Shown here one piece after another: positions 1,421-62,109 of a DNA stretch of 64,000 bases (position 1 is its first letter; each line of letters starts with the position of its first letter). Below the pieces are notes generated by a model. It did not search any database. It had not been told where the DNA came from and saw only the letters and a program-made list of their open reading frames with translations. Both the position numbers and the translations under genes were made by a program. This DNA comes from Candidatus Omnitrophota bacterium (lineage in GTDB: Bacteria > Omnitrophota > Gorgyraeia > Pluralincolimonadales > Pluralincolimonadaceae), in the NCBI GenBank assembly GCA_003141835.1, contig PLNR01000005.1, forward strand, positions 53,108 through 117,107. Direction: 5' to 3'.

Positions 1421-1426
1421 AAATAA

Positions 1427-7845: not shown

Positions 7846-7855
7846 GAAGGAAATC

Positions 7856-9733: not shown

Positions 9734-9746
9734 CGTCAGGACAAAT

Positions 9747-11728: not shown

Positions 11729-11735
11729 TCAATCC

Positions 11736-12755: not shown

Positions 12756-12757
12756 AT

Positions 12758-13702
12758 ATGACATCAAAATATGCAGATTGCATCGGTTGCGGAAATAAAA
12801 ATTTTAATTTTATATGTAATTTCTTCGATGGAAGTCGCAAATTTAAGGATAAATTGCGGCTTGTAAAGTGTAAAAGCTGCGGACTCGCGTTTATCAACCC
12901 TTTACCAAGCCGGGAGAAGCTGGAATCTTACGTTCAAAACCAGCTTTTTAGCGAAATAGACGACGGATCATATTTACCCCAGGTGAGGAAATTTTTATCC
13001 ATTAAAGATAAAGGAACGATTTTGGACATAGGCTGCGGAAGGGGATTTTTCCTTAACAGGATGAAACAGTCCGGTTGGTCCGCTTTTGGAGTTGAGCTAA
13101 ATGAACAAATGGCGGCGCAGGCAAAAGAAAAGCTTGGGCTTGATATCTTTTCCGGCACGCTCCGGGAGACAAGGTTCCCCGACGGGTCCTTTGATGCCGT
13201 AAATTTGCGCCATGTTTTGGAGCACCTGTTATCGCCGTACCAGGCCTTAACCCACATTCATAGACTGCTAAAGCAGGACGGGATCATTGTTATCACCGTG
13301 CCTAATTTTGAAGGCTTCCAAAGAAAGATATTCGGCAGATATTATTTGGCGGTGGCCGGAATATTTCACATCTCCCAATTCACTCCCCGCTCATTGAAGT
13401 CGTTATTGGAAAGGGCGGGTTACCGGGTGATCTCGACCAAGACATTTCAAGAGAGCGCTTCTGCGTGGCTTTATGGAGAGAGCCTGAGGTATTTGTTGAG
13501 AGATCTCAGGTTGTATCCTCAAAAGCAGGCCCTGGCCGGAAGAAGCAATTCCCTTAACGGCGCCTCGCCAAGGCCCTCAAGCCGTATATCGGTAAAGGAT
13601 TCCCTGCATTCCATTGAGCAAATATTATTTAAGGCCGTCGGGGGGATCGGAGCGGGCCTTGGCATGGGAGATGTAATGATCTGCTGCGCAAGGAAGGTGT
13701 AA
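12758..13702 (+). CDS. class I SAM-dependent methyltransferase with N-terminal Cys4 zinc ribbon
   Basis: CIGCGN...CKSCG zinc ribbon, then ILDIGCGRGFF (motif I) and acidic motif II. Paralog of 23219..24061. Confidence 0.75.
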   Translation: MTSKYADCIGCGNKNFNFICNFFDGSRKFKDKLRLVKCKSCGLAFINPLPSREKLESYVQNQLFSEIDDGSYLPQVRKFLSIKDKGTILDIGCGRGFFLNRMKQSGWSAFGVELNEQMAAQAKEKLGLDIFSGTLRETRFPDGSFDAVNLRHVLEHLLSPYQALTHIHRLLKQDGIIVITVPNFEGFQRKIFGRYYLAVAGIFHISQFTPRSLKSLLERAGYRVISTKTFQESASAWLYGESLRYLLRDLRLYPQKQALAGRSNSLNGASPRPSSRISVKDSLHSIEQILFKAVGGIGAGLGMGDVMICCARKV

Positions 13703-13705
13703 TAA

Positions 13706-14737
13706 ATGAAGATATTGTTATGCGCCTCTTCCAATAAACGGTTCATAGAGAACGGGGGATATGTCGAACTCGCTCTTAAAAAATTGGGCCATTGCGTGCA
13801 AGTCTTTGACTTCAGGGACTATCTTTTGCCTTTCGGGATCAGAAAGAGGCTCCCGGCTTTACACGGCTGGGACACGCATAGGATCAATAGGCTTCTCTAT
13901 GAACAAGCTAAGTCCTTCAAGCCGGATATCCTATTCGTTGTCCAGGGACAGACCATCCTGCCGCAGACGATCATTGAAATGAAGAAAAATTTAGGCTTGA
14001 TCGCAGTTAATTGGTTTGTAGATTATCCTAAGGAATTAGATCACGGTTTAAAAGTTGCTAAGGCATACGATCATTTTTTTGTAAACGGGACGGATGCGTT
14101 GGAAAAATACCTGGAAAACGGGATTACGCATGTTAAGTGGCTTCCGCTCGCTTGCGAGCCCGATATACATAAACCCCTGGTATTGGATGAAAAGGATAGG
14201 CTCAGGTTTAATGATGACATAGTATTTATCGGCTCTTTATATCCGGAGAGGATAAGTCTCTTCGGGAACCTGGCAGATCTTCCGCTTGGTATCTGGACCT
14301 GGGATGAGCGCCACCAGAAAATCGGGACATCATCCGCTTTAAGGAGAAGCATAAGGGGCGGCCCCTTGCCTCCTTGCGATTGGGTAAAATTATATAATAG
14401 CGCGAAGATCGCCTTGAATTCTGTCGGTCATTTCGGCGAATACGGAGAAAAAATCGGCGGGGATAAAATTCAGATGACAAACGCCAGGACATTCGAGATA
14501 CTTGCCTGCGGGACATTCCAATTAGTGGACAGGAAAAAAGACATTCTGGCCTTATTTTCCGATAGAGAGGATTTGGTCTGTTATAAAGACGGCGATGAAT
14601 TAAGGGACCTGGCCAAGTATTATTTAACCCACCCCGAAGAACGCAGGAAGATCTCGGAGAGCGGCCATAAAAAAGTATTGGAAAAACATACTTATGTCCA
14701 CAGGATGAAAGAAATATTCTCGTATTTGAAAATATGA
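13706..14737 (+). CDS. CgeB-like glycosyltransferase, second paralog
   Basis: N-terminal MKILLCASSNKRFIENGGYVE and C-terminal ERRKISESGHKKVLEKHTYVHRMKE closely parallel 11736..12755. Confidence 0.5.
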   Translation: MKILLCASSNKRFIENGGYVELALKKLGHCVQVFDFRDYLLPFGIRKRLPALHGWDTHRINRLLYEQAKSFKPDILFVVQGQTILPQTIIEMKKNLGLIAVNWFVDYPKELDHGLKVAKAYDHFFVNGTDALEKYLENGITHVKWLPLACEPDIHKPLVLDEKDRLRFNDDIVFIGSLYPERISLFGNLADLPLGIWTWDERHQKIGTSSALRRSIRGGPLPPCDWVKLYNSAKIALNSVGHFGEYGEKIGGDKIQMTNARTFEILACGTFQLVDRKKDILALFSDREDLVCYKDGDELRDLAKYYLTHPEERRKISESGHKKVLEKHTYVHRMKEIFSYLKI

Positions 14738-16920
14738 AAAAGATAACGGTGGCCCAGGCAGTGGAAAATTTGCGCATCGGCGGCATCGAGAAGACGGTCT
14801 CGACCGTTGCGCAGGGCTTAAATAAAGATAAATATGATGTCAAGGTCTATTGCCTCGCTGAAGGCGGGGCGATCGCGGATGAATTGGTCAGAAATGGCTA
14901 CGATGTTAAGGTGTTAAATTTAAAGACCTATCATAACCCGGTAAATATTTTAAGACTCGCCGGTTTAATGCGGAAAGACAGGGTGGATATCCTCCATACC
15001 CACGGTTATTTCGCAAGCACATTCGCCCGTTTGGCAGCCATCATCGCCCGGGTGCCGGTGATCTTCACTAAGATATCGAGCACTTATTACGACCTTAAAT
15101 TTAAACACCGGTTGACGGAACGGGTGCTTTCTTTATTTTCGGACAAGATAATCTGCGTCTCTGATGCGGTAAAGGAGTTCATAATACGGACGGAGGGGAT
15201 AGATCCCGGAAAGATAGCCGTGATCCACAACGGCGGAAGGGTAAAACCCGCTTCTCATCCGGAAGCTGCGCTAAGGTCAGGATGGGGCATAAAAGAAGGC
15301 GACAAAGTGATAGGTACGGTAGCGAGGCTCGAGCCGGTCAAGGGGGTGGAATATTTTATCAGGGCGGCAGCCGAAGCGGCAAAGGCGGACGTCCATATAA
15401 AGTTTTTGGTCGCCGGGGATGGCGCGCAGAGGCGGGAATTGGAAAATTTAGCGGATGCGCTTCAAATTAAGGATAAAGTGGTCTTCACGGGCTTTTTAAT
15501 GGATCCGCAAGACGCCTTATCGATAATGGATATCTTCGTTTTAGCATCGGCGGAAAGGGAGGGTTTTTCGAGCGCTTTAACAGAGGCGATGGGATTTGGA
15601 TTGCCTGTAATCGCAACCAGAATAGGCGGAAATGTCGAAGCGGTTTCTGACGGGATAAACGGGATTTTAGTCCCTCCGAAAGACCCCGGTGCCCTGGCAG
15701 AAGCGGTTATCTCCCTGTTAAAAGACCCTCCCAGGGCGAAAAAAATGGCGGAGGAGGGCAAGAGGTTATATCGCGAGAAATTCAGCGCCGACGTCATGGT
15801 CAATAAAATAGAAGGACTCTATGATTTTTATGTCAACAAAAAACTTAAAACGAAAACCAAATATAAAGTCATATTTTTCCCGGAAGGGAATATAACTAAT
15901 CCCGCGAGCAGGTATAACTGTTATTATTTAGCAGAGGCGTTAACCAGGGAAGGCATAAGGACCTGCATTTCTCATTCTGTTTTTCCGTATGGTAAACCCC
16001 TAAATTACGTTAGAGAAAAATATTTGCTTGTTAAAAACCTGATTAAAAAATCCCTTACGGTATTAACCAGCAGGGAAGGCGACATAATATTCATCCAGCG
16101 CGGCATCCCATGGAGAGGTTTTTTCGACAGGGCGGTATTCCGGCTCTATCTTTTTGCGAAAAGAGTCTTGAAGAAAAAAATAATATTTCATTTCGACGAC
16201 GCGGTCTATTTAAACCCTCCTGAACATGTGACGAGGACCATAATAGAGGTTAGCGATGCGGTTATCGCCGGCAGCCATCATTTAAGGGATTATGCTTTGA
16301 AGTTAAATAAAAACGTATTTTTGATCCCCACCTCGATCGATACCGATAAATGGAAGCCTGGTCCAAACCCGGGAAAGGATAAGAACGGTTTTTGTATCGG
16401 CTGGTGCGGAACGGGTTCAAATTTAAAATATCTGAGTTTATTGCGGGAACCCCTTTCGACCTTAGGCAAAAAATTCGATATAGAGTTGAAGATCATCGGT
16501 CCGGAAAGTGAAGCGGCGGATCTCCCGGAATTCGAAAACGTAAAGATCGTTTACCGGCCGTGGGACCTGGATGATGAGATAGAGGTCATCTCCAAATTTG
16601 ATATCGGCATTATGCCCCTTTACGACGGGGAGGCCGAAAGAGGCAAATGCGGCCTGAAACTCCTGCTGTATATGAGCCTTGGGATACCGGCGATAGGAAG
16701 CGCGGTCGGAGAAAACAGGCATATCATCAGGAACGGCGAGAACGGATTTTTGGCGTCGAATGAAAAAGAATGGGTCGAGAAATTGGAAGCGTTGATCACG
16801 GATGATGATTTAAGGGAAAGATTTTCCCTCGAGGGGAGAAGGACGGTCCTTGAAAGGTATTCTTTAAAGGAAAGCGCGAAAAAATTAGCGCAGATCATAA
16901 GGGACCTAAGTGCAGGATGA
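14734..16920 (+). CDS. two-domain glycosyltransferase (N-terminal GT4 plus C-terminal GT1-like)
   Basis: N-terminal half has the EGFSSALTEAMGFGLPVIATRIGG GT4 signature. C-terminal about 350 aa has a second GT-B-like C-domain (GSAVGENRHIIRNGENGFL). ATGA overlap with the upstream stop. Confidence 0.7.
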   Translation: MKKITVAQAVENLRIGGIEKTVSTVAQGLNKDKYDVKVYCLAEGGAIADELVRNGYDVKVLNLKTYHNPVNILRLAGLMRKDRVDILHTHGYFASTFARLAAIIARVPVIFTKISSTYYDLKFKHRLTERVLSLFSDKIICVSDAVKEFIIRTEGIDPGKIAVIHNGGRVKPASHPEAALRSGWGIKEGDKVIGTVARLEPVKGVEYFIRAAAEAAKADVHIKFLVAGDGAQRRELENLADALQIKDKVVFTGFLMDPQDALSIMDIFVLASAEREGFSSALTEAMGFGLPVIATRIGGNVEAVSDGINGILVPPKDPGALAEAVISLLKDPPRAKKMAEEGKRLYREKFSADVMVNKIEGLYDFYVNKKLKTKTKYKVIFFPEGNITNPASRYNCYYLAEALTREGIRTCISHSVFPYGKPLNYVREKYLLVKNLIKKSLTVLTSREGDIIFIQRGIPWRGFFDRAVFRLYLFAKRVLKKKIIFHFDDAVYLNPPEHVTRTIIEVSDAVIAGSHHLRDYALKLNKNVFLIPTSIDTDKWKPGPNPGKDKNGFCIGWCGTGSNLKYLSLLREPLSTLGKKFDIELKIIGPESEAADLPEFENVKIVYRPWDLDDEIEVISKFDIGIMPLYDGEAERGKCGLKLLLYMSLGIPAIGSAVGENRHIIRNGENGFLASNEKEWVEKLEALITDDDLRERFSLEGRRTVLERYSLKESAKKLAQIIRDLSAG

Positions 16921-16944
16921 AGATATCGTCGGGGATTTAGGTGA

Positions 16945-18231
16945 TTACCGCCATTTTATCCTTTTAAAATACTCCTGAATGTCGCCTCTCCACCTTCTTT
17001 TGGTCAAAAAACCCTTCAGGTCTTCCCTCATTTCCATGAGCTCTTCCAGGTCATAGGAATCGGTTTCGGTAACCAAGCCCCCTTCTCCCTGGCCGGCTAT
17101 GTTATAAAATTCGCTATAGACCTTAACGATGCGCCTGATCCCGTATTTCTTTTTATGCTCCCAGGTGTCGCTGCCCGGGAGGGGGATGAAGGTAAAAAGC
17201 GTATATTCATCGGGATCGGCCGTTTCCATGAATCTCTTTGTTTCTTGGATGGTATCCTTATTTTCCCCGGGTATGCCCACTATAAGGTAAACCTTCGTTA
17301 TCAATCCCGCTTTTTTGGCGTCTTTTATAGCTTTGATGTTCTGCCTCACCGTGCATTTTTTATTTATCCTGTCTAAAAGGTCCTGGCTGCCGGATTCTGC
17401 CCCAAATGCGATAGTTGTGCATCCCGACTCTTTTAATCTAACAAAATCTTCGTAATTATTCCGGTCCGCCCTCCCGTTGCACCGGAATTTTATCCGCAAT
17501 TTTTTGAACTCATCCAGGAGGGGATAAAGCCGCGCTCTATTTAACGTAAAAATATCGTCATAAATGATAAAGTTCCTGATACCATATCGTTTTATGATCA
17601 GTTTTATCTCGTCTACGACCGACCGGTTGGAGCGAAATCTCATCTTTTTGAAGGTCATGGGGCTATTACAGAAAGCGCATTTGTAAGGGCATCCCCTCGA
17701 AGTTATTATGGAAGTCGCTAACTTGCCCCCCACGATCCTATGGTAATTTTTTATATCGACCAGGTCCCTGGCCGGAAGAGGTAATTTATCCAGGTCCTGC
17801 GGTATGTTAAAGTCATAAACGGCCTTCGGCTTCCCCTTAATTATATCCTTCAGGCATTCCTTTATGCTCAGGTCCGCCTCTCCTTTTATGACTATATCAA
17901 AATCTTTTAACGACTGTTTAGGCAAGGCCGTGGGGTGGGCCCCGCCGGCTACGATCTTAGATTTGGGGTTTAGTTTTTTGCAGATCTTCTTTATTTGTTT
18001 TGAGATAGGGTAATTGCAGGTGTAAATTTCTATTCCGTATACATCCGCCTTACCTATCAATTTTTCCCATTGAGCATAGGGCTGTGAAGCCAGGTCGGCG
18101 ACCCTTACCTCAATACCCATATCTCTTATTGAGGCAGCCACATATAGCAGGCCTAAAGGCGGGTCTATCCTGTCATCCAGGCTGTTGATCTGGGGCGGGC
18201 TTATTAAACAGACATTGATCGTTCTTTTCAT
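16945..18231 (-). CDS. B12-binding domain radical SAM enzyme (minus-strand paralog)
   Basis: SRGCPYKCAFC = CX3CX2C. B12-like N-terminal domain and DLDKLPLPARDL motif shared with 6472..7845. Only minus-strand gene inside the glycan locus. Start taken at the MKRTINV ATG. Confidence 0.75.
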   Translation of the reverse strand: MKRTINVCLISPPQINSLDDRIDPPLGLLYVAASIRDMGIEVRVADLASQPYAQWEKLIGKADVYGIEIYTCNYPISKQIKKICKKLNPKSKIVAGGAHPTALPKQSLKDFDIVIKGEADLSIKECLKDIIKGKPKAVYDFNIPQDLDKLPLPARDLVDIKNYHRIVGGKLATSIITSRGCPYKCAFCNSPMTFKKMRFRSNRSVVDEIKLIIKRYGIRNFIIYDDIFTLNRARLYPLLDEFKKLRIKFRCNGRADRNNYEDFVRLKESGCTTIAFGAESGSQDLLDRINKKCTVRQNIKAIKDAKKAGLITKVYLIVGIPGENKDTIQETKRFMETADPDEYTLFTFIPLPGSDTWEHKKKYGIRRIVKVYSEFYNIAGQGEGGLVTETDSYDLEELMEMREDLKGFLTKRRWRGDIQEYFKRIKWR

Positions 18232-18421
18232 AAAGTCGCTCCGGTTAGTAACAGGGTACATTTTATAGTATGGGGAAGACGGAAATCAAGACAATTTGCC
18301 CCTCAGCCGCCAGGTCAAAGCCCTAGAATACGGGTACCTCCTGTGATATAATCATCGCTTAAGGAGTATTCTATTGGCCCCATCCGTAATTCTGATCACC
18401 GAAAGTCCGGATAAATAAACT

Positions 18422-20320
18422 ATGTGCGGCATATGCGGGATCTTAGATTTTAATAAGTCCGGATCCGTCGAGCCAAGCTCGATCAAAAGGATGTGCGATG
18501 AGTTGAAGCATCGCGGACCGGATGACGAGGGCATATATTCAAACGGAAGGATCGGCCTGGGAGTAAGGCGCTTAAGCATCATAGACCTGGTTACCGGGCA
18601 CCAACCGGTCCATAATGAAGATAAAAAGATCTGGGTCGTCATGAACGGCGAGATCTATAATTTCCGGGACTTAAGGGACGGGTTAGAGGGCAAGGGGCAT
18701 AAGTTTTACACAAAGTCGGATACAGAGGTATTGGTCCATCTATACGAAGAATATGCCGAGAATTGCGTGCAGCATCTTCGCGGGATGTACGCTTTTGCGA
18801 TCTGGGATGAGAGACGGGATAAACTGATCCTCGCAAGGGACAGGGTCGGAAAGAAACCTTTGTGTTATCGTCTGGAGAACGGTAGGCTGGTCTTCGGCTC
18901 CGAGATCAAGTCGATACTGGCTGTTTCTGAAACGTCCCCCCGCATGGATTTAGAGGCTTTGGACCTGTACCTTACCTATAAATATATTCCGGCCCCACGG
19001 ACCATCTTCCAGGGGGTGAGGAAACTTCCGCCTGCGAGCATCCTGGTCTGGGAAGACGGGAAAATGACCGTAAACGAATACTGGGACCTGAAATTTACAC
19101 CCAAGGGTGATTTCACGGAGGCCGAATGGAAAGAACAGATCATGGACCGTTTAAGGGAGGCAGTAAAGATCCGCCTGGTAAGCGATGTGCCCCTGGGGGT
19201 CCTTTTAAGCGGCGGGATCGATTCAAGCGCGGTCACCGCTTTGGCATCCCAGTTTTCAGGCGGACCGGTCAAGACCTTTTCGGTGGGTTTTGAAGAGACC
19301 GATTTTTCCGAGTTAGAATACGCCCGCCTTATCGCAAAACGCTTTAATACGGAGCACCGCGAATTTATCGTAAAACCTGAGGCGGTGAAGATCCTGCCGG
19401 AATTGATTTCGCATTACGGAGAACCGTTCGCGGACGCATCCTGTATCCCGACTTTTTATCTGTCAAAATTATCGAGGGAGTTCGTGACCGTCGCGCTCTC
19501 AGGCGACGGCGGGGACGAGAATTTTGCCGGCTACGGCTGGTACAACATCCATTCTTATTTCGCGCCGTTTAAGGTCTTTCCGAGGCCTCTATTCGCCTTA
19601 AATGAATCCTTGTTTAAAGCGATGGGTTTTGCAAGGAGCAGGTCCGTCCTGTTAAGGCGCCTTCAAAAAGCGATGAAGTACGGCAGGTTAGGTCCCATCC
19701 AGCGATACGGCGAGTGGGTATCTTATTTTAACGAGGAATTAAAATCGCAGCTTTATAATGAAAAACTAAAAAAAGGATCGAGGAAAGAACGCGAGTATGG
19801 TCTATTGCTCGAATGCCTCAAGGGCGCCGGGGATCTGGGCATATTGGACAAGCATCTCTACGTGGATATCAAAAATTACCTGCCGGGAGACCTGTTGGTA
19901 AAGATGGATATCGCTTCGATGGCGAATTCGCTTGAAGTGCGCTCGCCTTTTTTAGACCATAAATTTTTGGAGTTTACCGCAACGATCCCCGCCGGATTGA
20001 AACTGAAACAAGGGGAAGGAAAATATATCTTTAAAAAAGCCATGGAAGGGTTGCTGCCGGAGGAGGTATTGAACCGGAAAAAACAAGGTTTTTCGGTCCC
20101 GTTAAAGAAATGGATAAGCAAAGACCTGAGCGGATTTATCGAGCGGACGCTATTAAGCAAAGAGTCGGCTGCCGGAGAATATTTTAATACGGATTTTATC
20201 AAGCGGATGCTGACGGACCACCGGAATGGCAGGGTAAATTATGCCGGCCACTTATGGGCGCTTGCGAATTTTGAAATATGGCATAAAATATTCATCGAGA
20301 AAAAAGATCATGCCGGATAA
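18422..20320 (+). CDS. asparagine synthase (glutamine-hydrolysing) family amidotransferase
   Basis: N-terminal MCGICGI (Cys2 Ntn nucleophile) and SGGIDSS PP-loop. In glycan loci such homologs amidate sugar carboxylates. Confidence 0.85.
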   Translation: MCGICGILDFNKSGSVEPSSIKRMCDELKHRGPDDEGIYSNGRIGLGVRRLSIIDLVTGHQPVHNEDKKIWVVMNGEIYNFRDLRDGLEGKGHKFYTKSDTEVLVHLYEEYAENCVQHLRGMYAFAIWDERRDKLILARDRVGKKPLCYRLENGRLVFGSEIKSILAVSETSPRMDLEALDLYLTYKYIPAPRTIFQGVRKLPPASILVWEDGKMTVNEYWDLKFTPKGDFTEAEWKEQIMDRLREAVKIRLVSDVPLGVLLSGGIDSSAVTALASQFSGGPVKTFSVGFEETDFSELEYARLIAKRFNTEHREFIVKPEAVKILPELISHYGEPFADASCIPTFYLSKLSREFVTVALSGDGGDENFAGYGWYNIHSYFAPFKVFPRPLFALNESLFKAMGFARSRSVLLRRLQKAMKYGRLGPIQRYGEWVSYFNEELKSQLYNEKLKKGSRKEREYGLLLECLKGAGDLGILDKHLYVDIKNYLPGDLLVKMDIASMANSLEVRSPFLDHKFLEFTATIPAGLKLKQGEGKYIFKKAMEGLLPEEVLNRKKQGFSVPLKKWISKDLSGFIERTLLSKESAAGEYFNTDFIKRMLTDHRNGRVNYAGHLWALANFEIWHKIFIEKKDHAG

Positions 20321-21086
20321 TCCTCACAAACAAGGGATACTAGCTAAAGAGAGCCCCGATTTCTTAAGTTATTCGCGGCTCTACTTTTGGTGGAAGAAGA
20401 ACAGGGTGATTTGCGATATTGTGCGCCGGGAATTGAAAAGCCGGAATATAAAAGATATCCTGGACCTGGGATGCGGCGTAGGAGACGATATTTTTTGCCT
20501 GAACTCCAAATACGGCGCCGAATTCGGTTTAACGTTCAACGGAGTCGATAAAAACGCCGAAAAAATAGGATTTTGTGAGGCGCGGAAGGATTTCAGGGGA
20601 GACGGAAATGTAAGATTCAGCGTCGGCGATATAGCCGATCTGGAATTAAAGGATTCTTCATACGACTTAGTGATCTGTTCCGAGGTAATAGAGCATTTGA
20701 CCCGGCCTTCGGATGCGATCAGGGAAATAAAAAGGGTCCTTAAAAATAACGGTGTGGCCGTAGTCAGCACGCCGAACAAGTCCAATCCCATGATGAGGAT
20801 CCGGAGATCCTTATGGTTTTTGAGATCCGCAAAAGATGGGTGCAGGGATACTTCGGACGCCGGGCATATTTCCGTCTCCGGCTTGAATGATTGGGTCGGG
20901 GTCTTTAAGGACGAAGGGTTTAAGATCGAGAAAATATGCAGGGGAAGCCTGCTTTTCGGCGGGCACCAGATCGATCCCCACAGGGTTTTATTTTTATTTG
21001 TCCTGTTTCTTGATATCGTTTTGGATCTCCTGCCTTTCGGGAAAAATTGGTCGGAAAATGTGATCTTTTGCCTAAGGAAGAGATGA
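20310..21086 (+). CDS. class I SAM-dependent methyltransferase
   Basis: LDLGCGVGDD motif I and an acidic motif II (VICSEVIEHL). Start moved to ATG 20310 (MPDNPH), just before the upstream stop. Confidence 0.7.
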   Translation: MPDNPHKQGILAKESPDFLSYSRLYFWWKKNRVICDIVRRELKSRNIKDILDLGCGVGDDIFCLNSKYGAEFGLTFNGVDKNAEKIGFCEARKDFRGDGNVRFSVGDIADLELKDSSYDLVICSEVIEHLTRPSDAIREIKRVLKNNGVAVVSTPNKSNPMMRIRRSLWFLRSAKDGCRDTSDAGHISVSGLNDWVGVFKDEGFKIEKICRGSLLFGGHQIDPHRVLFLFVLFLDIVLDLLPFGKNWSENVIFCLRKR

Positions 21087-23215
21087 GAACCTTCAATGTG
21101 TTATATGTAGACATATTCGGCGACTGGATAGGCGGCGGGCAGAGAAGCCTGATGGACCTGGCGAAGTCGTTAGATCCCGGACATTTCAATCCGGTCATAA
21201 TTTGCCCGGAGGAAGGCAAGTTTGTCGACTTGATCCGGAGCCATTCGATCACCGTTGAAATTGTGCCGATGGGCACGTTCAAAACGATAGATCCCATATC
21301 CAGGTTATTAACTTTTAATAAATTGGCGGGGCTTGTCAAAAAGCACAAGATCGACCTGATCCACGTAAACGGCCTGAGAGCGGCGATCTATTGCGGGGCG
21401 ATAGCAAAGTATTTCAAGGTCCCTCTCGTCTGGCATGTAAGGGTGCCGGAATCAGGTGGTGTCGCCGAAAGGGCGGCGTATGCCTTCGCCGATAAGATAA
21501 TCGTCAATTCAAGGGCAGTCGGTAAAAAATTCGCGAATTGGCGGGGGAGCGCAGATAAGGTCGTGGTCATATATAACGGGATAAATTTGGAAGAATTTAA
21601 GCCCTGCGAAAGGAAAAACAAGTTAGCTCCCGGACTCGGATTCGGTGAAAATGAACCTTTAGTCGGTATGGTCGGGGAATTAAGTCCGAAAAAAGGCCAG
21701 AAATGCTTTTTAGAGGCGGCGTCTAAAGTGATCGGGGAATCGCCGCAGGTTAAATTCTTGATCGTAGGAGAAGAGCATGACAGCGGCGTATATAAAGGCG
21801 AATTGACCAGGTTGGCGGATAAACTAAAGATCTCACAGTCGGTTTGTTTCCTGGGATTCCGGGATGATATAGCCGAGATACTGGATTCCCTGGCATTGTT
21901 GGTCCATTGTCCGGAGAGGGAGGGGTTCGGGAGGGTAGTGGTGGAAGCGATGGCATTAAAAGTGCCGGTTGTCGCAACTGATGCCGGCGGGATACCGGAG
22001 ATAATCAAAGACGGGGTGAACGGGTTCCTGATCCCCGTCGGGGACACAGAGGCGCTGGCTAAGACGATATTAGGCCTATTAAGGGATAAAGCGAGATCCG
22101 GGATCCTGGGAGAGGCGGGCAGGAAGACGGTCGAGGGATCATTCGATCTGAAGAGGCAGATAAAAAAGATCGAAGGGATCTACCGGGAATTGCTCCAAGG
22201 ATATGGAACAGGCGCAATAAAACAATACGCGGACCTATTCCTGGATTCGATCTGGGGCGACCGGAACGTCTTTGCGATCCAGCCGGAGCATCGGAGGCAG
22301 TTGGATGAATTCGCGGATTATCTTGCGGGGGGAGGCATAAACTTCCGGTCAACCGGTGATTTCCTTAAGGATAGGAACAATTTCTTGATAGAGAATTTTT
22401 TGACTTTCCTGATATCTAAAAAGATATTAAAAGGGTCCCGCTTATACAGGGACCTCGAAATCATCAAAAGACAAATAAGGGAGAAAACGGTAAGCGATAA
22501 AGATTACGATGAACGCATATCAATACAGACGCCGGAGTCGTTGATCGACGAATATTACGATCCCGAGGATCCCGAAAGGAAGAAGAGGCTGGAGGTGATC
22601 TTACGAAATCTGGACGCCGCGGGCGGCGAAAAGATACTGGACCTGGGCTGCGGGGCCGGCGCCCTTGTTTACCATTCGGCGCTGGCGGGGGCCGCGGCTT
22701 GGGGGATCGACTATTCAAAAAAATCGATAGAGGCCGCCGTCCGGCTTTCCGAGCGTTATAACTTTAAAGATAAAGCGACGTTTTTGGTCCACGACGTCAC
22801 GAGAGGCGCCTTGCCTTTCAATGACGGATTTTTTGACAAAGTCGTGGCGGCCGATTTTATCGAACACATAACCCATTTCGATAAGGAAAAGCTGATCAAA
22901 GAAGTACGCCGGGTTTTAAGAACCGGCGGAACGCTGGTGATCTATACGCCCAACGGGATAAGGGAGTTTTTGGGACATTTAAAGCGGCGTCTATTGCGTG
23001 CGTTCAGGAAGGGAAATGATTGTAACGACAAAACAAGGCTCCATTTCGGCTTGATCGACAGGTTTAGGTTTGAAGGCCTGTTGAGGAGGAACAACCTTAT
23101 CTTTAAAAGGTATTATGTCGATATTACACGGCCATATTTGGCGGCTATACCCCTGCTAAAGGATCTTTTAAGCGCTAATTTATTGTGGGTAATTAGAAAG
23201 GACGGTAAATCTTAA
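21083..23215 (+). CDS. fusion protein: GT4 glycosyltransferase (N) plus class I SAM methyltransferase (C)
   Basis: N-terminal about 380 aa have a GT4 signature (EGFGRVVVEAMALKVPVVATDAGGIPE). C-terminal about 200 aa have ILDLGCGAGALV motif I and DFIEHI motif. ATGA overlap at the 21083 start. Confidence 0.75.
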   Translation: MRTFNVLYVDIFGDWIGGGQRSLMDLAKSLDPGHFNPVIICPEEGKFVDLIRSHSITVEIVPMGTFKTIDPISRLLTFNKLAGLVKKHKIDLIHVNGLRAAIYCGAIAKYFKVPLVWHVRVPESGGVAERAAYAFADKIIVNSRAVGKKFANWRGSADKVVVIYNGINLEEFKPCERKNKLAPGLGFGENEPLVGMVGELSPKKGQKCFLEAASKVIGESPQVKFLIVGEEHDSGVYKGELTRLADKLKISQSVCFLGFRDDIAEILDSLALLVHCPEREGFGRVVVEAMALKVPVVATDAGGIPEIIKDGVNGFLIPVGDTEALAKTILGLLRDKARSGILGEAGRKTVEGSFDLKRQIKKIEGIYRELLQGYGTGAIKQYADLFLDSIWGDRNVFAIQPEHRRQLDEFADYLAGGGINFRSTGDFLKDRNNFLIENFLTFLISKKILKGSRLYRDLEIIKRQIREKTVSDKDYDERISIQTPESLIDEYYDPEDPERKKRLEVILRNLDAAGGEKILDLGCGAGALVYHSALAGAAAWGIDYSKKSIEAAVRLSERYNFKDKATFLVHDVTRGALPFNDGFFDKVVAADFIEHITHFDKEKLIKEVRRVLRTGGTLVIYTPNGIREFLGHLKRRLLRAFRKGNDCNDKTRLHFGLIDRFRFEGLLRRNNLIFKRYYVDITRPYLAAIPLLKDLLSANLLWVIRKDGKS

Positions 23216-23218
23216 GGG

Positions 23219-24061
23219 GTGATCATGGAAGAGGTCAGCTGCGATATATGCGGGATCGACAAGACGAAAAATATAGTGAGCTCGGATAAATTTAACATCG
23301 TCCAATGCCAGGGGTGTGGTTTGGTATATATGAACCCAAGGCCGGATAAGCGGTTGTTAGGCGAATACTATGCCAACTATTACTCGGACCTGAAAGGCCA
23401 TTACGAAGAAGAGAGGCTGTACAAGTGCCGCTTTAAAGAACGGCTAGATGCGATCAAAAAATATAAGAATGGAGGCAGGTTATTAGACATCGGATGCGGC
23501 GTCGGATTTTTTTTGCAATCGGCTAAGGAGAGGAAATGGCAGGTCTCCGGGATAGAACTTTCATCGTTGTCGGCCGATATAGCCCGGTCATCCGGCGTAG
23601 ACGTGTTTACGGGCTCGATCGAAGATGCGGACCTGGAGAGCGGCTCCTTCGACGTGATCACAATGTGGCACGTGATAGAACATTTACAGCGTCCTTCAGG
23701 GGCCCTGAAGAAAATTTATCGCGCGTTGAAAAAAGGGGGCGTATTGGCCCTTGAGACCCCGAATATGGATTATTATTTCAAATTTAAGGCCGATAAATTA
23801 AATGATGTTTTACGTCGCGAACACCTCTATAACTTTTCAAGCCGTACATTAACCCGCTTATTGGAAAATTCAGGATTTACCGTTTTAAATTTAGAACAAA
23901 AGCCGTCAGGGACGGATCTGGGAGGGATGCTGAAAAAATACGGGGTTAAAGGTTATCTGGTAAAGCACCTGCCTTTTTTGTCCGTGATCAGGGAGCCTTT
24001 GATGCGATTCAGGGGTTTATTGGGCCAAAACGAGGTTATCGTTGCTTACGCAAAAAAATAG
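23219..24061 (+). CDS. class I SAM-dependent methyltransferase with N-terminal zinc ribbon
   Basis: CDICG...CQGCG ribbon then LLDIGCGVGFF. Same architecture as 12758..13702. Confidence 0.75.
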   Translation: MIMEEVSCDICGIDKTKNIVSSDKFNIVQCQGCGLVYMNPRPDKRLLGEYYANYYSDLKGHYEEERLYKCRFKERLDAIKKYKNGGRLLDIGCGVGFFLQSAKERKWQVSGIELSSLSADIARSSGVDVFTGSIEDADLESGSFDVITMWHVIEHLQRPSGALKKIYRALKKGGVLALETPNMDYYFKFKADKLNDVLRREHLYNFSSRTLTRLLENSGFTVLNLEQKPSGTDLGGMLKKYGVKGYLVKHLPFLSVIREPLMRFRGLLGQNEVIVAYAKK

Positions 24062-25088
24062 GATTAAGAAGATCCTGATCCTCCGGTTAGACCGCATAGG
24101 GGATATAGTGCTTTCTACGCCGGCAATTAAAGCGGTGAGGGAATATTTTCCGGAAACGCACATCGCGGTAATGGTCAGGGGGGAATATAAGGGCTTACTC
24201 ATAAACGATCCCGCCATAAATGAGGTCATCGGATGCAAGCCCCTTTGGGATTTTAAGTTCATCGGGGAACTGCGGGACAGGAAGTTCGATCTAGCCGTCG
24301 ACCTGGTCATGGACCGGGATTATAAAAGCGCTTTTTTGGCTTATTTAAGCGGGGCCCCTTATCGGGCAGGGTACGATATTGCAGGCAGGGGCATATTTTT
24401 CAATATAAGGGCCGGATATGGCAAAGAGAAGAAACATCTCGTTGAAAATAATTTAGATGTCATAAGAAAGCTGGGGATAGTCCCCGGCGGGGGGAGGCCT
24501 CAACTTCATGTTGCCCCGCAGGATTCGGGATTTATCAGGGATTTTTTATCATCACAGGGCATTGATCAGGGTGAAATTTTAGTCGGCATCCATCCCGGAG
24601 GATATTATCCATCGCAGCGCTGGCCGGCGGAGAGAGTCGCCGCGCTGTCCGATGAAATAATAAAAAGATACACTGCTAAGGTGGTCCTTATCGGAGGGCC
24701 GGAAGAAAGGGATTTTATGGAAAGGGCTGCGGGATCGATGAAGGTAAAAGCTATTGTCGTAAAAGACATCTCTTTGGCGCATTTAACGGCGCTGATCCGG
24801 CGGTGCCAGCTTTTGGTCTGTAATAATTCCGGGCCCTTGCATATCGCCTGCGCATTAGGGGTGCCTACGGTATCGACTATGGGGCCGACTTTACCCTGGC
24901 GGTGGTGGCCTGTCGGGGAGGGCCACATTGTCCTGCGGAAGGACCTGCCTTGCAGCCCTTGCGGGAAAGGTTCTTGCGGGACGCACGAGTGCATGGAATT
25001 GATCACTGTGGATGAAATGCTGGAGGCGGTTGACAAGCAGATGAAACTTTTGGTGAAGAATAAATGTGCGGAATCTACGGCGCGGTAG
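24042..25088 (+). CDS. family 9 glycosyltransferase (heptosyltransferase-like)
   Basis: ILILRLDRIGDIVLSTPAIKAVREYFP N-terminal signature of GT9 (RfaF/RfaC-like) and C-terminal CxxC Cys cluster. Overlaps the upstream gene by 20 nt. Confidence 0.75.
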   Translation: MLTQKNRIKKILILRLDRIGDIVLSTPAIKAVREYFPETHIAVMVRGEYKGLLINDPAINEVIGCKPLWDFKFIGELRDRKFDLAVDLVMDRDYKSAFLAYLSGAPYRAGYDIAGRGIFFNIRAGYGKEKKHLVENNLDVIRKLGIVPGGGRPQLHVAPQDSGFIRDFLSSQGIDQGEILVGIHPGGYYPSQRWPAERVAALSDEIIKRYTAKVVLIGGPEERDFMERAAGSMKVKAIVVKDISLAHLTALIRRCQLLVCNNSGPLHIACALGVPTVSTMGPTLPWRWWPVGEGHIVLRKDLPCSPCGKGSCGTHECMELITVDEMLEAVDKQMKLLVKNKCAESTAR

Positions 25089-28033
25089 GGATCCGGGACC
25101 CTTCGCTTTTGGAGCGCATGGGCGCGGTCACGATCCATCGCGGCCCTGATGAAAGCGGCGCCTATCTGGATGATGATGCCTCATTGGGCGTGCGGAGGTT
25201 AAAGATAATCGGGTTAGAATCCGGGCATCAGCCGATACACAATGAGGATCAGGCGCTTTGGCTCGTTTATAACGGCGAGATATATAACTTTAAGGAATTA
25301 CGATATTCCCTTGAGGCGAAGGGGCATAAATTCTATACGAAGACAGACGGCGAGGTGATCGTGCACCTCTACGAGGAATACGGCGAGGATTGCGTCAAAC
25401 ATTTAAGAGGGATGTTCGCCTTCGCTGTCTGGGATAAAAAAAACCGGAACTTATTTCTGGCGCGGGACAGGATCGGGATAAAACCGCTTTATTACACATC
25501 TGTTGACGGAGTTTTGTATTTTGCCTCAGAACTTAAGGCCTTATTGGAGGCGGATGTGATCAAAAAAGAGATAAACCCTGAGGCGATACATGATTTCCTG
25601 ACGTTCCTATATATCCCCGCCCCCTCGACGATCTTTAAATCCGTCTTTAAATTACCGCCGGGGTATACCTTGAGATTCCAGGACGGGAGTTATTCGGTAC
25701 AGGAATACTGGGACCTGGAATTGGATATAAGCAAGGAAAAGGATGAAATTTTTTACCTCGATAAGATATACGATCTATTGCAAGAGGCGGTAAAGTTACA
25801 TTTAATAAGCGATGTGCCTTTAGGGGTTTTTTTGAGCGGAGGAGTGGATTCGAGCGTCCTGGTAAGCATTATGGCGGGTTTGACAAATCGACCGATAAAG
25901 ACTTTTAGCATCGGATACGGCAGGAAAGACGAAGATTATAATGAGCTGAAATACGCCCGCCTGGTCAGTGAATGCTTTGGCACGGAGCACAGGGAGTTTA
26001 TCGTCAAACCGGACGCGATCGGACTCTTACCGGAACTCGCCTGGCATTTCGATGAGCCATTCGCGGATTCATCCGCGATCCCCACTTTCTTAATTTCAAA
26101 ATTAGCGAAAAAAGATATAACGGTCGCCTTAAGCGGCATCGGCGGAGATGAGGCCTTTGGGGGATATCCCAGGTATTTAGGCGCTTATATTTCCGGATAT
26201 TACCAGCGGCTGCCGGAAATCATGAGAAAGGCGGCGTATAAAGCGGCATCTTTATTTCCCGAGAGCACGCAGAACAGGGACCTCTTTAGTTGGGCGCGGA
26301 GGTTTGCCAGGGGCGGGCTCCTTCCTTTTGGAATGAGGTATTTCGATTGGGTGACTTTCCTGCGACCGGACGAGATAAATAAACTCTACACGGCAAGTTT
26401 TATCGGAAATTTAAAAGATGCCGGTCCGGTCAAGGATAAGCAGGCTTATTTCGGCGGGGACAGATCGCTGGAGGGGATTTTTCGTTTCGATATAAAAACC
26501 TATCTCCCCGATGACCTGCTCTTTATGGCGGATAAGATGAGCATGGCGAATTCGCTGGAATTGCGGGTGCCGTATTGCGACCACAAGGTGATGGAGTTTG
26601 CCGCCTCGATCCCCTACGGATTAAAGCTCAAAGGGCTTAAATTAAAATACCTGTTAAAAAAATCCTTCAAGGGCCTGCTGCCCCGGGAGGTCTTAACCCG
26701 GCGAAAACAAGGTTTTATGATCCCCATAGGCAGATGGATAAAACAGGACCTGAAGGGCGTCGCGGAAGAGCTCTTGTCCAGGCGGCAAATTGAAAAGCGC
26801 GGCTATTTCAATTACGAATATGTCCGCTGGATCCTGGACCAGCATTACTCCGGAAAACGGGATTTCACCGACAGGATCTGGGCGCTTATGAACCTGGAGA
26901 TGTGGCACAGGATATATATAGACAAAGATCACCCGGTAAATAAGGATATGGATATAGCGGTAGAAGATGTCCCCTCAGCTACGGGCAGGCATTGCCCCCG
27001 GATCGCCGGGGACGATTTTAAGGACGCCAAAAAGATCCTTATCGTAAACCTGGCGGGCATAGGAGACGTTGTGATGTCCACCCCTGCCTTGAGGGCGGTG
27101 AGAAAGAGATTTCCGTCGGCCTTTATCTCGTTCCTTACGGTCCCCGGTTCCGCCGGCATCCTCAGGGGCAGCTCAGATGTAAACGAGATATTGGCTTTAG
27201 ACGCGGGGAGACCGGGTATAAGAGATGTTTTAAGGCTGTTGACGGATCTAAGGAAAGCCAAATATGACATGCTGATCAACCTTTACGAGATAGGTTCGCT
27301 TTCCGGCGCTATTAAGATGGCATCTCTTTTCTGGTTCGTGGGTGGAAAATATAAAGTCGGACGGAATACCGGCGGATTAGGCTTCTTCTTAAATCGTAAA
27401 ATTTTTGAAAGCGCCCGGCTGAAAAGGCATACGGTCGAGTCAATGCTGGACATAGCGAGATTTTTGGGCGGCAACTCGGACGGGAAAGGCATGGAGATAC
27501 CGCTTGAAAAAAATGAGATGGATTTCGCCAGTGATTATCTTAAGTCGCATAATATTTCCGGCGAGGACCTGTTGTTCGGGCTTCATAAAGACGCTAAAAG
27601 GCCGAGCAGGCGCTGGCCGGATGAAAGTTGGGATATTCTGGAAAAAGAATTAAGAATAAGATACGGGGCAAAAATAATCTTGACGCCGGGCGCCGGCGAA
27701 TTTAATTTAAAACAATTTGCCGCCATCCTTAAAAGGTTCGACCTTTTCATTACTAATGATACCGGAGCCATGCATATCGCCGCGGCCGTGGGTACGCCCA
27801 CGGTGGCTTTATTCGGACCGTCGGACATCCATAAGTTCCGGCCTTATGCCGAGAGTGATAAATTTGCGATCGTAAGGAAACACGTCGGTTGTAACCGGCC
27901 TTGCTATAAGCATGATTGCGCAGATAAAGGCTGTATGGAGCGTATTGCGCCTGAAGATGTACTGATAGCGGCGGAGAAAATATTAAATGAAAAAAAGATT
28001 AAAAGTCCTTCATATAATCACGCGCTTAGATAA
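25064..28033 (+). CDS. fusion protein: asparagine-synthase-like amidotransferase (about 620 aa) plus GT9 heptosyltransferase-like domain (about 350 aa)
   Basis: MCGIYGA Ntn-Cys start and SGGVDSS PP-loop, then a continuous frame into ILIVNLAGIGDVVMSTPALRAVRKRFP (GT9 signature). 989 aa with no internal stop. Confidence 0.8.
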   Translation: MCGIYGAVGIRDPSLLERMGAVTIHRGPDESGAYLDDDASLGVRRLKIIGLESGHQPIHNEDQALWLVYNGEIYNFKELRYSLEAKGHKFYTKTDGEVIVHLYEEYGEDCVKHLRGMFAFAVWDKKNRNLFLARDRIGIKPLYYTSVDGVLYFASELKALLEADVIKKEINPEAIHDFLTFLYIPAPSTIFKSVFKLPPGYTLRFQDGSYSVQEYWDLELDISKEKDEIFYLDKIYDLLQEAVKLHLISDVPLGVFLSGGVDSSVLVSIMAGLTNRPIKTFSIGYGRKDEDYNELKYARLVSECFGTEHREFIVKPDAIGLLPELAWHFDEPFADSSAIPTFLISKLAKKDITVALSGIGGDEAFGGYPRYLGAYISGYYQRLPEIMRKAAYKAASLFPESTQNRDLFSWARRFARGGLLPFGMRYFDWVTFLRPDEINKLYTASFIGNLKDAGPVKDKQAYFGGDRSLEGIFRFDIKTYLPDDLLFMADKMSMANSLELRVPYCDHKVMEFAASIPYGLKLKGLKLKYLLKKSFKGLLPREVLTRRKQGFMIPIGRWIKQDLKGVAEELLSRRQIEKRGYFNYEYVRWILDQHYSGKRDFTDRIWALMNLEMWHRIYIDKDHPVNKDMDIAVEDVPSATGRHCPRIAGDDFKDAKKILIVNLAGIGDVVMSTPALRAVRKRFPSAFISFLTVPGSAGILRGSSDVNEILALDAGRPGIRDVLRLLTDLRKAKYDMLINLYEIGSLSGAIKMASLFWFVGGKYKVGRNTGGLGFFLNRKIFESARLKRHTVESMLDIARFLGGNSDGKGMEIPLEKNEMDFASDYLKSHNISGEDLLFGLHKDAKRPSRRWPDESWDILEKELRIRYGAKIILTPGAGEFNLKQFAAILKRFDLFITNDTGAMHIAAAVGTPTVALFGPSDIHKFRPYAESDKFAIVRKHVGCNRPCYKHDCADKGCMERIAPEDVLIAAEKILNEKKIKSPSYNHALR

Positions 28034-29141
28034 AGGCGGCTCTTCGGAGAATACCTTGTTGACCGCCTCCGGCCTGGATAAGGGAAGGTTTGATGTAACC
28101 TTAGTCTTCGGGAAAACCAAGGACCCCGACGGCCGGGTAAGAAGGGCTTTGTCCGATAACGGGATAAATTATCGGGTAGTCCCCCGGCTCGTAAGACAAC
28201 TGGATCCCTGGAGCGACCTGACCGCCTTTTTGAGGTTATACGCTATAATAAAGCGGGGGGATTTCGACATCGTCCACACCCATACGTCAAAAGCAGGCAT
28301 CCTGGGCAGGTGGGCGGCGAAATTAGCCGGCGTCAAGGTCATAATCCACACCCCGCACGGCCATATCTTTTACGGTTATTTTGGCCCGGTAAGGAACAGG
28401 TTGTTCATTATGCTGGAACGGTTCACTGCGCATATTACCGACAGGATAATCACATTAACCCAAAGAGGGAAAGATGAGCACGTTAAATTCGGGATATCCA
28501 AGGCCGATAAATTCGTGTCTATTTATAGCGGAGTAGAGTTAGAAAAGTTCATAAATTCAAACTATGACCCGGCGCAGGCGAGGGAATCGCTTGGCATCCC
28601 GCCAAACGGGCCGGTGATAGGGACCATAACGAGGCTCGAGCCGGTAAAAGGGAACATGTATTTCATCGAAGCGATACCGCAGGTTATCAAGATCTTTCCT
28701 GACCTAAAAGTTATAATAACGGGCGACGGAGCGCAAAAACGCGCTATGGAAAATAAGATCAAGGAACTTTCTTTATCACGGAATGTCATTCTCCGGGGCG
28801 CCACAAATGACGCCCCCGGGGCATTGTCCGCGTTAGACATATTTGTCCTGCCTTCTTTAAATGAAGGGATGGGAAGATGCCTGCTTGAGGCGATGGCCCT
28901 GTCCAAACCGATAATCGCGACAGATGTCGGCGGGGTATCTGAAATTGTCGAGAATGGGGTGAACGGGATATTGGTCCCTCCGAAAGATCCGGACGCGCTG
29001 GCGCAAGCTATAATATCTTTACTGGGAAATAAGGCCCGCGCCGACGGGATGGGCAAGTCGGGCAAGGGTAAGCTCAACCGTTTTTTTAGCGCTCAAGCTA
29101 TGGTAGAAAAGATAGAGGCGTTATACGAAGAACTCACATAA
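27987..29141 (+). CDS. family 4 glycosyltransferase (GT4)
   Basis: EGMGRCLLEAMALSKPIIATDVGGVSEIVENG signature. Confidence 0.8.
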   Translation: MKKRLKVLHIITRLDKGGSSENTLLTASGLDKGRFDVTLVFGKTKDPDGRVRRALSDNGINYRVVPRLVRQLDPWSDLTAFLRLYAIIKRGDFDIVHTHTSKAGILGRWAAKLAGVKVIIHTPHGHIFYGYFGPVRNRLFIMLERFTAHITDRIITLTQRGKDEHVKFGISKADKFVSIYSGVELEKFINSNYDPAQARESLGIPPNGPVIGTITRLEPVKGNMYFIEAIPQVIKIFPDLKVIITGDGAQKRAMENKIKELSLSRNVILRGATNDAPGALSALDIFVLPSLNEGMGRCLLEAMALSKPIIATDVGGVSEIVENGVNGILVPPKDPDALAQAIISLLGNKARADGMGKSGKGKLNRFFSAQAMVEKIEALYEELT

Positions 29142-46556: not shown

Positions 46557-46631
46557 ACGTTAGCTTTTTCTGATAGTATAATATGGATTTAGTATGAAAG
46601 CGCGGTTCTTGACAAAAGGAGGTCACGTTAG

Positions 46632-47216: not shown

Positions 47217-47234
47217 CGAAAGGGGGTTAAGGGA

Positions 47235-47855: not shown

Positions 47856-47862
47856 ATAAAAT

Positions 47863-49236: not shown

Positions 49237-49237
49237 T

Positions 49238-49271
49238 CCCTTAACGGATTTAAGGGACAACTAGTCCCTTA
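49238..49271. terminator. bidirectional terminator: two overlapping hairpins between convergent genes
   Basis: CCCTTAA cggat TTAAGGG (49238-49256) and TAAGGGAC aact GTCCCTTA (49251-49271). Sits at the junction of the + glycosidase and the - HAMP gene. Confidence 0.5.
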
Positions 49272-60018: not shown

Positions 60019-60027
60019 GAGGTTTAG

Positions 60028-62106: not shown

Positions 62107-62109
62107 AAA

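Follow-up and report, generated by a model that had tools for sequence, protein, structure and literature searches.

A single gene in a 64,000-nucleotide stretch of DNA from a Candidatus Omnitrophota bacterium (contig PLNR01000005.1; hereafter, the window) encodes an asparagine synthetase B (AsnB)-like amidotransferase and a family 9 glycosyltransferase (GT9) in one polypeptide. Judging from its sequence, this fusion is probably a bifunctional enzyme that couples the amidation of a sugar carboxylate to one glycosyl transfer in a Wzx/Wzy-type surface-glycan pathway. Purifying selection acts on each half while the tether between them is relaxed, a pattern typical of a working polypeptide with two enzymes, and the AsnB-GT9 architecture is recurrent but rare.

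The gene (25064..28033 on the forward strand) is one continuous open reading frame (ORF) that starts with ATG and encodes 989 residues plus a stop codon, with no internal stops. As recorded in an earlier note on this DNA, the translation begins MCGIYGA, such that the nucleophilic Cys directly follows the initiator Met, contains the PP-loop SGGVDSS (residues 258-264), and runs without interruption into a complete GT9 domain. Pfam places GATase_7 at residues 44-161 (E 7.5e-50), Asn_synthase at residues 235-616 (E 5.7e-106) and Glyco_transf_9 in the C-terminal third (E 7.5e-27), and the respective scores of 168.5 (PF13537), 355.6 (PF00733) and 94.7 bits compare with gathering thresholds of 25, 21 and 22. 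The catalytic motifs are intact in both halves; the GT9 half, which carries a ILIVNLAGIGDVVMSTPALRAVRKRFP motif at residues 658-684, can be aligned from end to end with 3TOV, HepII and HepI. No transmembrane helix is predicted for the fusion. An AlphaFold2 model built from a 105-sequence alignment has a mean predicted local distance difference test (pLDDT) score of 90.3 and a predicted template modelling (pTM) score of 0.76, with disorder confined to residues 640-647 (pLDDT <50) and the C-terminal tail. In Foldseek comparisons, residues 1 to ~620 of this model match TsnB9 (7YLZ) and AsnB (1CT9) with TMt values of 0.80-0.82, and the C-terminal remainder matches the GT9 structures 3TOV, 1PSW and 2H1H (TMt 0.70-0.74); no chain in the PDB was found by Foldseek to cover both halves.

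The junction between the two halves is well supported. The protein is 100% identical to a database entry (P0241) found in NCBI, ENA and Logan on three contigs, and seven more variants, at 97% and ~86% identity, derive from other assemblies (P0001, P0242, P0243, P0002, P0244, P0245 and others), the sources of which include GCA_028716565.1 (NCBI), and ERZ1426817 and ERZ1426844 (ENA); two of the variants are named in NCBI as Candidatus Omnitrophota proteins (MDD5546620.1 and MFA5339946.1). All eight close orthologues retain one frame and a linker of 37 residues, with no indels. At the 86% level, the linker is 54% identical, as against 85-89% for the domains. Moreover, a codon comparison of the window with one orthologous contig (L090; 88.7% nucleotide identity, no indels) yields a dN/dS of 0.11 in the glutaminase domain, 0.135 in the synthetase domain, 0.27 in the GT9 domain and 0.76 in the linker. 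It is because the frame and linker length are kept, and because dN/dS shows this pattern, that we regard the fusion as a functional polypeptide and not as a frameshift or chimera. The earlier note had named an assembly error or frameshift at the junction as one possible refutation; a single frame is preserved there in independent assemblies whose identity is 100, 97 or 86%.

The N-terminal half has the attributes of the class II (N-terminal nucleophile, Ntn) amidotransferase/AsnB superfamily, namely Cys2, the glutamine-binding residues, the PP-loop and the Pfam scores. Alignment with E. coli AsnB (1CT9) equates Arg49, Asn74, Glu76 and Asp98 of the latter with Arg45, Asn70, Glu72 and Asp95 of the fusion, and all four columns are the same in 123 of 123 aligned family members; the Cys2 column is Cys in 117 of these relatives and a gap in the other six. 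Within the synthetase domain, the sequence LSGIGGDE (residues 356-363) presents Ile359 in place of Glu348 of E. coli AsnB, a residue important for acyl-adenylate formation in AsnB. The column is occupied by Ile or Val in 121 of the 123 relatives, whether fused or free-standing. The human ASNS equivalent, Glu-364, contacts the aspartyl moiety in a published model (PMC6748925).

The profile scores point in the same direction. Against NF006949, the equivalog model for true AsnB, the fusion scores 330.7 bits, below the cutoff of 499, and it passes the broad model TIGR01536 (516 versus 267); it is because only this broad model is passed that the protein bears the NCBI name asparagine synthase. The top NCBIfam model for the N-terminal 613 residues is TIGR03108 (eps_aminotran_1, an amidotransferase of the XrtA/PEP-CTERM system), at 607.9 bits. 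WbpS, WbqG and PGN_1234 of Porphyromonas gingivalis have been placed in TIGR03108, and PGN_1234 is required for the glucuronamide form of a sugar (PMC7468200); a wbpS mutant of Helicobacter pullorum makes HexNAcA in place of HexNAcAN (PMC6025236). Given the low NF006949 score, the rank of TIGR03108 and the Ile/Val at the Glu348 position, the N-terminal half does not appear to be a housekeeping AsnB.

The C-terminal half qualifies as a member of CAZy GT9 (Glyco_transf_9) by its Pfam score, its GT-B fold and its two Asp residues. The catalytic Asp668 lies in a GIGD motif, Asp899 in NDTG and Trp851 in RRWP; Asp668 is kept in 163 of 168 relatives and Asp899 in 159, and the range with Trp851 included is 159-168 of 168. 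The two Asp residues align with the catalytic Asp of the GD motif and the donor-site Asp of the D-T/S-G motif in 2GT1 and 1PSW, and presumably match, in their roles, the catalytic Asp13 and the donor-site Asp261 of HepI. A heptosyltransferase-like label, as applied in the earlier note, is not established, as the GT9 half falls under the cutoff of every HepI/II/III equivalog (69.5 versus 185.3 for TIGR02193, 74.8 versus 134.6 for TIGR02195, and 93 versus 170.2 for TIGR02201). Near its C-terminus is a four-cysteine motif, CX3CX4CX4C (C943, C947, C952 and C957; window 27890-27934). Among 168 relatives, fused and free-standing together, 158-159 conserve it, and the parts of 3TOV, HepI and HepII that align with the GT9 half lack it. 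The motif probably binds a metal in a structural role, and may resemble the iron-finger of protein heptosyltransferases such as TibC.

Together, these features suggest the following scheme. The fusion product would be soluble and cytoplasmic. After removal of Met1, the N-terminal Cys2 would hydrolyse glutamine, and the ammonia would pass to the synthetase domain, where a carboxylate would be adenylated with ATP at the PP-loop. This carboxylate most likely belongs to a sugar, being that of a uronic acid on either a nucleotide sugar or a lipid-linked repeat unit, and it would be converted to a carboxamide, as by WbpS, WbqG and PGN_1234. The GT9 domain, as a predicted inverting GT-B transferase, would then perform a transfer step that either directly uses or follows the amidated sugar, and the covalent link would hold both steps at 1:1 stoichiometry and at one site. 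The sequences show the architecture, the intact catalytic motifs, the selection on both halves, the descent from an adjacent gene pair and the recurrence of the fusion; which carboxylate is amidated, which sugar is donated and which reaction comes first are inferred. The coupling of amidation to glycosyl transfer, which the earlier note had proposed from this one gene, gains strength from the fusions and gene pairs described below: the fusion recurs independently and the unfused orthologues are adjacent, and it is on these grounds that the two steps appear to be functionally linked.

Several observations weigh against this interpretation. The replacement of Glu348 means that the chemistry may differ from that of AsnB. 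The score against TIGR03108 is below the trusted cutoff of 816.9, such that membership of the WbpS family is not established, and the likeness of the AsnB half to WbpS and WbqG rests on this model score. The pLDDT and pTM values are silent on the packing of the two halves, and the linker is weakly conserved and in part disordered. Additionally, the 64-kb window holds no gene for a uronic-acid dehydrogenase of the Ugd, WbpO or WbpA type, and none for the ADP-heptose pathway (nothing resembling GmhA, HldE, GmhB or HldD scores above cutoff; a short-chain dehydrogenase/reductase (SDR) encoded at 5489-6475 reaches 87 versus 274.6 for the heptose epimerase); thus, neither substrate is fixed by the context.

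Some of these points are shared by the main alternative, which we judge unlikely, though it retains an appreciable share of the probability, in which the AsnB-like domain acts on a carboxylate other than that of a uronate. Such a carboxylate could belong to an amino acid or peptide attached to the glycan, to Kdo or a different ulosonic acid, or to the C-terminus or a side-chain of a protein. The GT9 domain could then be a protein or lipid heptosyltransferase. The lack of a uronic-acid biosynthesis gene in the window and the sub-cutoff TIGR03108 score both suit such an enzyme, as does the near-invariance of the four-cysteine motif in this GT9 subfamily, given its presumed resemblance to the iron-finger of TibC. 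Moreover, AsnB relatives modify varied carboxylates, including trichostatic acid in the case of TsnB9 and lasso-peptide precursors (the fusion also matches NF033535), and, reportedly, mDAP in peptidoglycan (PMC8554201, PMC5485061). Set against this, all loci examined are devoted to glycan assembly (GT2 and GT4 glycosyltransferases, Wzx or Wzt, WbqC, PIG-L and an initiating transferase), no gene for an autotransporter or PEP-CTERM substrate was seen nearby, and the repeated fusion of this amidotransferase to two glycosyltransferase families is best accommodated by a sugar substrate. We prefer a sugar carboxylate as the target.

The window protein is not alone in its architecture: in a database search, both Pfam domains are present in 52 of the best 120 matches, and these ~50 proteins all carry the plain label asparagine synthase. 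Most have ~975 residues, belong to Elusimicrobia and other phyla, and go by the name 'asparagine synthase (glutamine-hydrolyzing)' alone. The suggestion in the earlier note that such a fusion is undescribed stands as far as the full-text literature is concerned, where we found no paper on an AsnB-glycosyltransferase fusion and only background on WbpS-type enzymes; it does not extend to the databases, which already hold ~50 fusions, this exact protein included. The AsnB domain is N-terminal in all 52, because the Ntn mechanism requires a free N-terminus. The halves of the other fusions are 45-50% (AsnB) and 30-36% (GT9) identical to those of the window protein, which is below the identity of its unfused relatives. 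A profile of the full-length fusion, when compared with 1.84 billion representatives at 50% identity, yields ~7 end-to-end matches among 60,752 AsnB-like sequences (E <=1e-30).

Relationships among the fusions were examined in unrooted neighbour-joining trees (Kimura distances, 100 bootstraps), one per domain, in which the deep nodes are unresolved (bootstraps 0-61). A main fusion clade has 41 members in the AsnB tree (bootstrap 100) and 39 in the GT9 tree (bootstrap 96); a six-member clade with a long linker (~1040 residues in total), including a Candidatus Methylomirabilis protein (P0050), has bootstraps of 100 and 100, as does the trio that contains the window protein; and there are a few singleton fusions. 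In both trees, the fusion clades are set apart by free-standing proteins. These shallow clades suggest at least three separately supported fusion lineages. Furthermore, the same AsnB subfamily is found fused at its C-terminus to GT4 domains in proteins of ~1013-1097 residues (P0252, P0259, P0260, P0290, P0315, P0364 and P0276 are among the GT4 and multi-glycosyltransferase fusions), and one protein of 1,846 residues combines AsnB with several GT4 and GT1_2 domains; what recurs as the partner is, therefore, the broader class of GT-B glycosyltransferases.

A single ancient AsnB-GT9 fusion followed by many fissions, of which the window gene would be a surviving member, would account for the identical domain order and similar linker positions of all the fusions, and the poorly supported deep nodes leave room for it. 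Nevertheless, we consider it rather improbable. The domain order is forced by the N-terminal Cys and is, hence, no sign of common origin, and many free-standing sequences separate the clades of 41, 6 and 3 members, each with bootstraps of 96-100. The AsnB-GT4 proteins show that fusion to a glycosyltransferase happens repeatedly, and, in some relatives, the stop codon of one gene overlaps the start codon of its neighbour, such that a single mutation would fuse the two. One old fusion with subsequent fissions is, thus, less parsimonious than several fusions.

The likely precursors of the window gene are apparent in the gene order of its relatives. The AsnB half has its closest relatives among free-standing proteins of ~626 residues (55-58% identity), and the GT9 half among free-standing GT9 proteins (40-45% identity). 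At one locus (L002), the AsnB gene is followed by the GT9 gene after a gap of 14 nt; at another (L006), the stop and start codons overlap by 1 nt; and at a third (L086), the genes overlap by 11 nt. At two others (L001 and L004), the GT9 gene lies 1-2 kb downstream of the AsnB gene, with one or two small genes between, and at L087 a GT4 gene, not a GT9 gene, directly follows the closest free-standing AsnB (6001-9095). Among 80 species-genome loci with more distant AsnB homologues, only one (L006) has a GT9 gene within ~6 kb, and the AsnB-GT9 linkage does not, therefore, extend beyond the close subclade and the fusion families. The 37-residue linker is about as long as the AsnB C-terminal tail and the GT9 N-terminal tail of L006 taken together. 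Since the closest unfused relatives of both halves are adjacent genes in the same order, the simplest history that the sequences suggest is that the fusion arose from the joining of neighbours, presumably when a stop codon was lost between adjacent, translationally coupled AsnB and GT9 genes in this Omnitrophota lineage.

Separately, the octamer TAAGGATA is shared by two sites: the stop codon of the AsnB gene in the L002 split pair (9879-9889) and, out of frame, the linker of the window gene (26935-26945). The match could be a relic of an ancestral stop codon and Shine-Dalgarno sequence, or could be due to chance; the linker lengths differ.

The earlier note had envisaged a different origin, in which an AsnB and GT9 pair was duplicated within this cluster and one copy was then fused. 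The cluster does, as reported there, hold one extra copy of each, both recognized by Pfam and lying upstream of the fusion. These copies are non-adjacent, being 3.7 kb apart. Their identity to the fused halves is no more than 46% for AsnB and 31% for GT9, and they are, thus, more distant from these halves than the unfused orthologues elsewhere. In addition, each fused half groups in the trees with free-standing proteins from other genomes rather than with its local paralogue, and adjacent split pairs are present in relatives. Pairwise identities and trees contradict a recent local duplication, and we regard this history as very unlikely.

That the protein is a true asparagine synthetase with an incidental glycosyltransferase domain is highly improbable: it does pass TIGR01536, but it fails NF006949, has Ile in place of a Glu that helps to hold the aspartate moiety, and is encoded in a glycan cluster alongside a second AsnB paralogue. 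The notion that a frameshift, mis-assembly or pseudogene has merged two genes, to which the metagenome-type sequence lends its only credit, deserves virtually no credence in view of the independent assemblies that keep one frame without indels, the purifying selection on both halves, and the ~50 further AsnB-GT9 fusions in other phyla.

What, then, does the fusion signify? Both domain families, the type of pathway and multi-domain glycan enzymes are already known, and this is not a new kind of biology. Nonetheless, the stage at which WbpS/WbqG-type enzymes carry out amidation is given in the literature as a proposal only (PMC2615507, PMC6025236), and is unsettled between the nucleotide sugar, the lipid-linked oligosaccharide and the polymer. 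The AsnB-glycosyltransferase fusions provide Rosetta-stone evidence for a dedicated glycosyltransferase partner of the amidotransferase, and the window protein, as a single soluble polypeptide, offers an experimental model for the order of amidation and transfer. More tentatively, it is possible that the AsnB-type amidotransferases of this subfamily are obligate partners of one GT-B transferase. Free nucleotide sugars, the substrates commonly assumed for WbpS, would then not be their targets; they may instead act on the membrane-bound, lipid-linked glycan, or channel an amidated donor to their partner. If this were true, a general amidotransferase-glycosyltransferase complex would have left its fossil record in the repeated fusions of AsnB to GT9 and to GT4, which would supply a single-polypeptide model for the timing of uronamide formation. 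There is also a point of annotation: the ~50 entries named 'asparagine synthase (glutamine-hydrolyzing)' are, by their sequences, almost certainly bifunctional glycan-modifying enzymes and not asparagine synthetases, and their database name is misleading.

The features of the fusion gene and of its surroundings are collected in Table 1.

Table 1. Coordinates of the fusion gene, its domains and other features within the 64,000-nucleotide window
Feature	Position	Strand	Evidence or remarks
Fused AsnB-like amidotransferase/GT9 glycosyltransferase gene	25064..28033	+	ORF, Pfam, identity to P0241, AlphaFold2
Class II (Ntn) glutaminase domain, residues 1-200, nucleophile Cys2	25064..25663	+	Pfam GATase_7, GATase_6; 1CT9 alignment
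ATP-dependent synthetase (adenylating) domain, residues 201-618	25664..26917	+	Pfam Asn_synthase; NCBIfam; Foldseek
Interdomain linker, residues 619-655 (37 aa), IDKDHPVNKDMDIAVEDVPSATGRHCPRIAGDDFKDA	26918..27028	+	Alignment, dN/dS, pLDDT
GT9 (GT-B fold) glycosyltransferase domain, residues 656-975	27029..27988	+	Pfam PF01075; 3TOV/1PSW/2GT1 alignments; Foldseek
Surface-glycan biosynthesis cluster including the fusion	140..29141	+ (16945-18261 on -)	Pfam, NCBIfam, GC, synteny
Free-standing GT9 paralogue, 348 aa	24042..25088	+	PF01075 E 6.4e-31; overlaps fusion start by 25 nt
Free-standing AsnB-like amidotransferase paralogue, 632 aa	18422..20320	+	Pfam; TIGR03108 648 bits
GT4 glycosyltransferase, last gene of the cluster	27987..29141	+	Pfam Glycos_transf_1, Glyco_transf_4; overlaps fusion 3' end by 47 nt
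GT2+GT2 protein, 625 aa	7856-9733		Pfam
GT4+Glyco_trans_1_2 protein, 728 aa	14734-16920		Pfam
GT4+SAM-methyltransferase protein, 722 aa	21047-23215		Pfam
Four radical-SAM enzymes	3040-4128, 4092-5492, 6442-7845, 16945-18261	16945-18261 on -	One SPASM-type, two B12-binding, one AprD4-like
Pfam-less ORFs	45903-46556, 46632-47216, 47235-47855, 47863-49236	+	
Pfam-less ORFs	49261-50430, 50427-50936	-	

The cluster that houses the fusion encodes a Wzy-like protein, a Wzx flippase, an SDR epimerase, GT2, GT4 and GT9 glycosyltransferases, and at least five S-adenosylmethionine (SAM) methyltransferases. The free-standing AsnB-like paralogue has Asp at the position equivalent to Glu348. The top NCBIfam model for the GT4 glycosyltransferase that ends the cluster is TIGR03088 (a glycosyltransferase of the PEP-CTERM/XrtA system), with a score below cutoff. 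Three other proteins of the cluster also combine domains, and domain fusion is a general habit of this glycan locus; on the contig with 97% identity, the gene predicted in place of the GT4-methyltransferase gene encodes 951 residues. The presence of four radical-SAM enzymes, one of which resembles the AprD4 diol-dehydratase (264 bits, below cutoff), together with the methyltransferases suggests that the sugars are heavily methylated or deoxygenated. The GC content is 0.37-0.49 in the cluster (window 1-29141; minimum at 2-6 kb) and 0.53-0.55 in the flank (29142-64000); lower GC is usual in horizontally exchanged surface-glycan loci. The synteny of the cluster is the same in the L090 and P0001 contigs.

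The loci of the split pairs and of the main fusion family are likewise glycan clusters, often with WbqC, PIG-L and an initiating transferase. A WbqC-family gene (PF08889) lies a few kilobases downstream of the AsnB-GT9 pair or fusion at four of them (L002, 14511-15206; L086, 12463-13158; L088, 12771-13445; L089, 13770-14444). In the 64-kb window, no exosortase/PEP-CTERM or WbqC gene was found.

Three further observations concern the flank of the window. A c-di-AMP riboswitch (RF00379; 57842-57999 on the forward strand, 79.8 bits, E 6e-17) is situated directly upstream of a kdpA-kdpB-kdpC potassium-pump operon (58270-62691). A run of six ORFs (45903-50936) has no Pfam match, and the two of these that were scanned with NCBIfam gave no match either. 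Finally, a Prok-JAB gene followed by a gene for a ThiF-family E1-like protein (31259-32405) is located between a PHO4 phosphate transporter and TerC, an arrangement that also occurs in the L090 and P0001 contigs.

The fusion can be compared with several known systems. Like its N-terminal half, WbpS (P. aeruginosa O6), WbqG (E. coli O121) and PGN_1234 combine an Ntn-Cys glutaminase with a PP-loop and synthetase, and their genes also lie in clusters for O-antigen or other surface glycans; the uronamide disappears when they are knocked out (PMC7468200, PMC6025236). These proteins are free-standing, at ~630 residues, whereas the fusion bears a covalently attached GT9 domain and has no uronic-acid precursor genes in its window. 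E. coli AsnB (1CT9) and human ASNS (6GQ3) have the same fold as the AsnB half (Foldseek TMt 0.75-0.80), with identical glutaminase residues and PP-loop; by comparison, the fusion has Ile at Glu348/Glu-364, a longer C-terminal region in the synthetase domain, a fused glycosyltransferase and a glycan-cluster setting. The top match in the PDB by both sequence (E 2e-58) and fold (TMt 0.82) is the hydroxyamidotransferase TsnB9 (7YLZ), an AsnB-like enzyme that acts on a non-aspartate carboxylate; unlike the fusion, it retains the Glu (LSGEAADE), belongs to a natural-product pathway and has no glycosyltransferase domain.

As for the C-terminal half, the Veillonella GT9 (3TOV) and the E. coli enzymes HepII/WaaF (1PSW) and HepI/WaaC (2GT1, 2H1H) have the GT-B fold and both Asp motifs in common with it. 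The fusion differs from the lipopolysaccharide core heptosyltransferases, which are encoded in a core-lipopolysaccharide locus, in that it is not an orthologue by score, carries the four-cysteine motif, lies in a Wzx/Wzy-type cluster and is joined to an amidotransferase. Lastly, the ~975-residue Elusimicrobia-type fusions (for example, OGR80201.1, P0029) and the ~1040-residue family share the domain order of the window protein, a comparable linker position and a location in methyltransferase-rich glycan clusters, but form clades separate from the window's trio in both trees; most simply, the window gene would be an independent and younger fusion.

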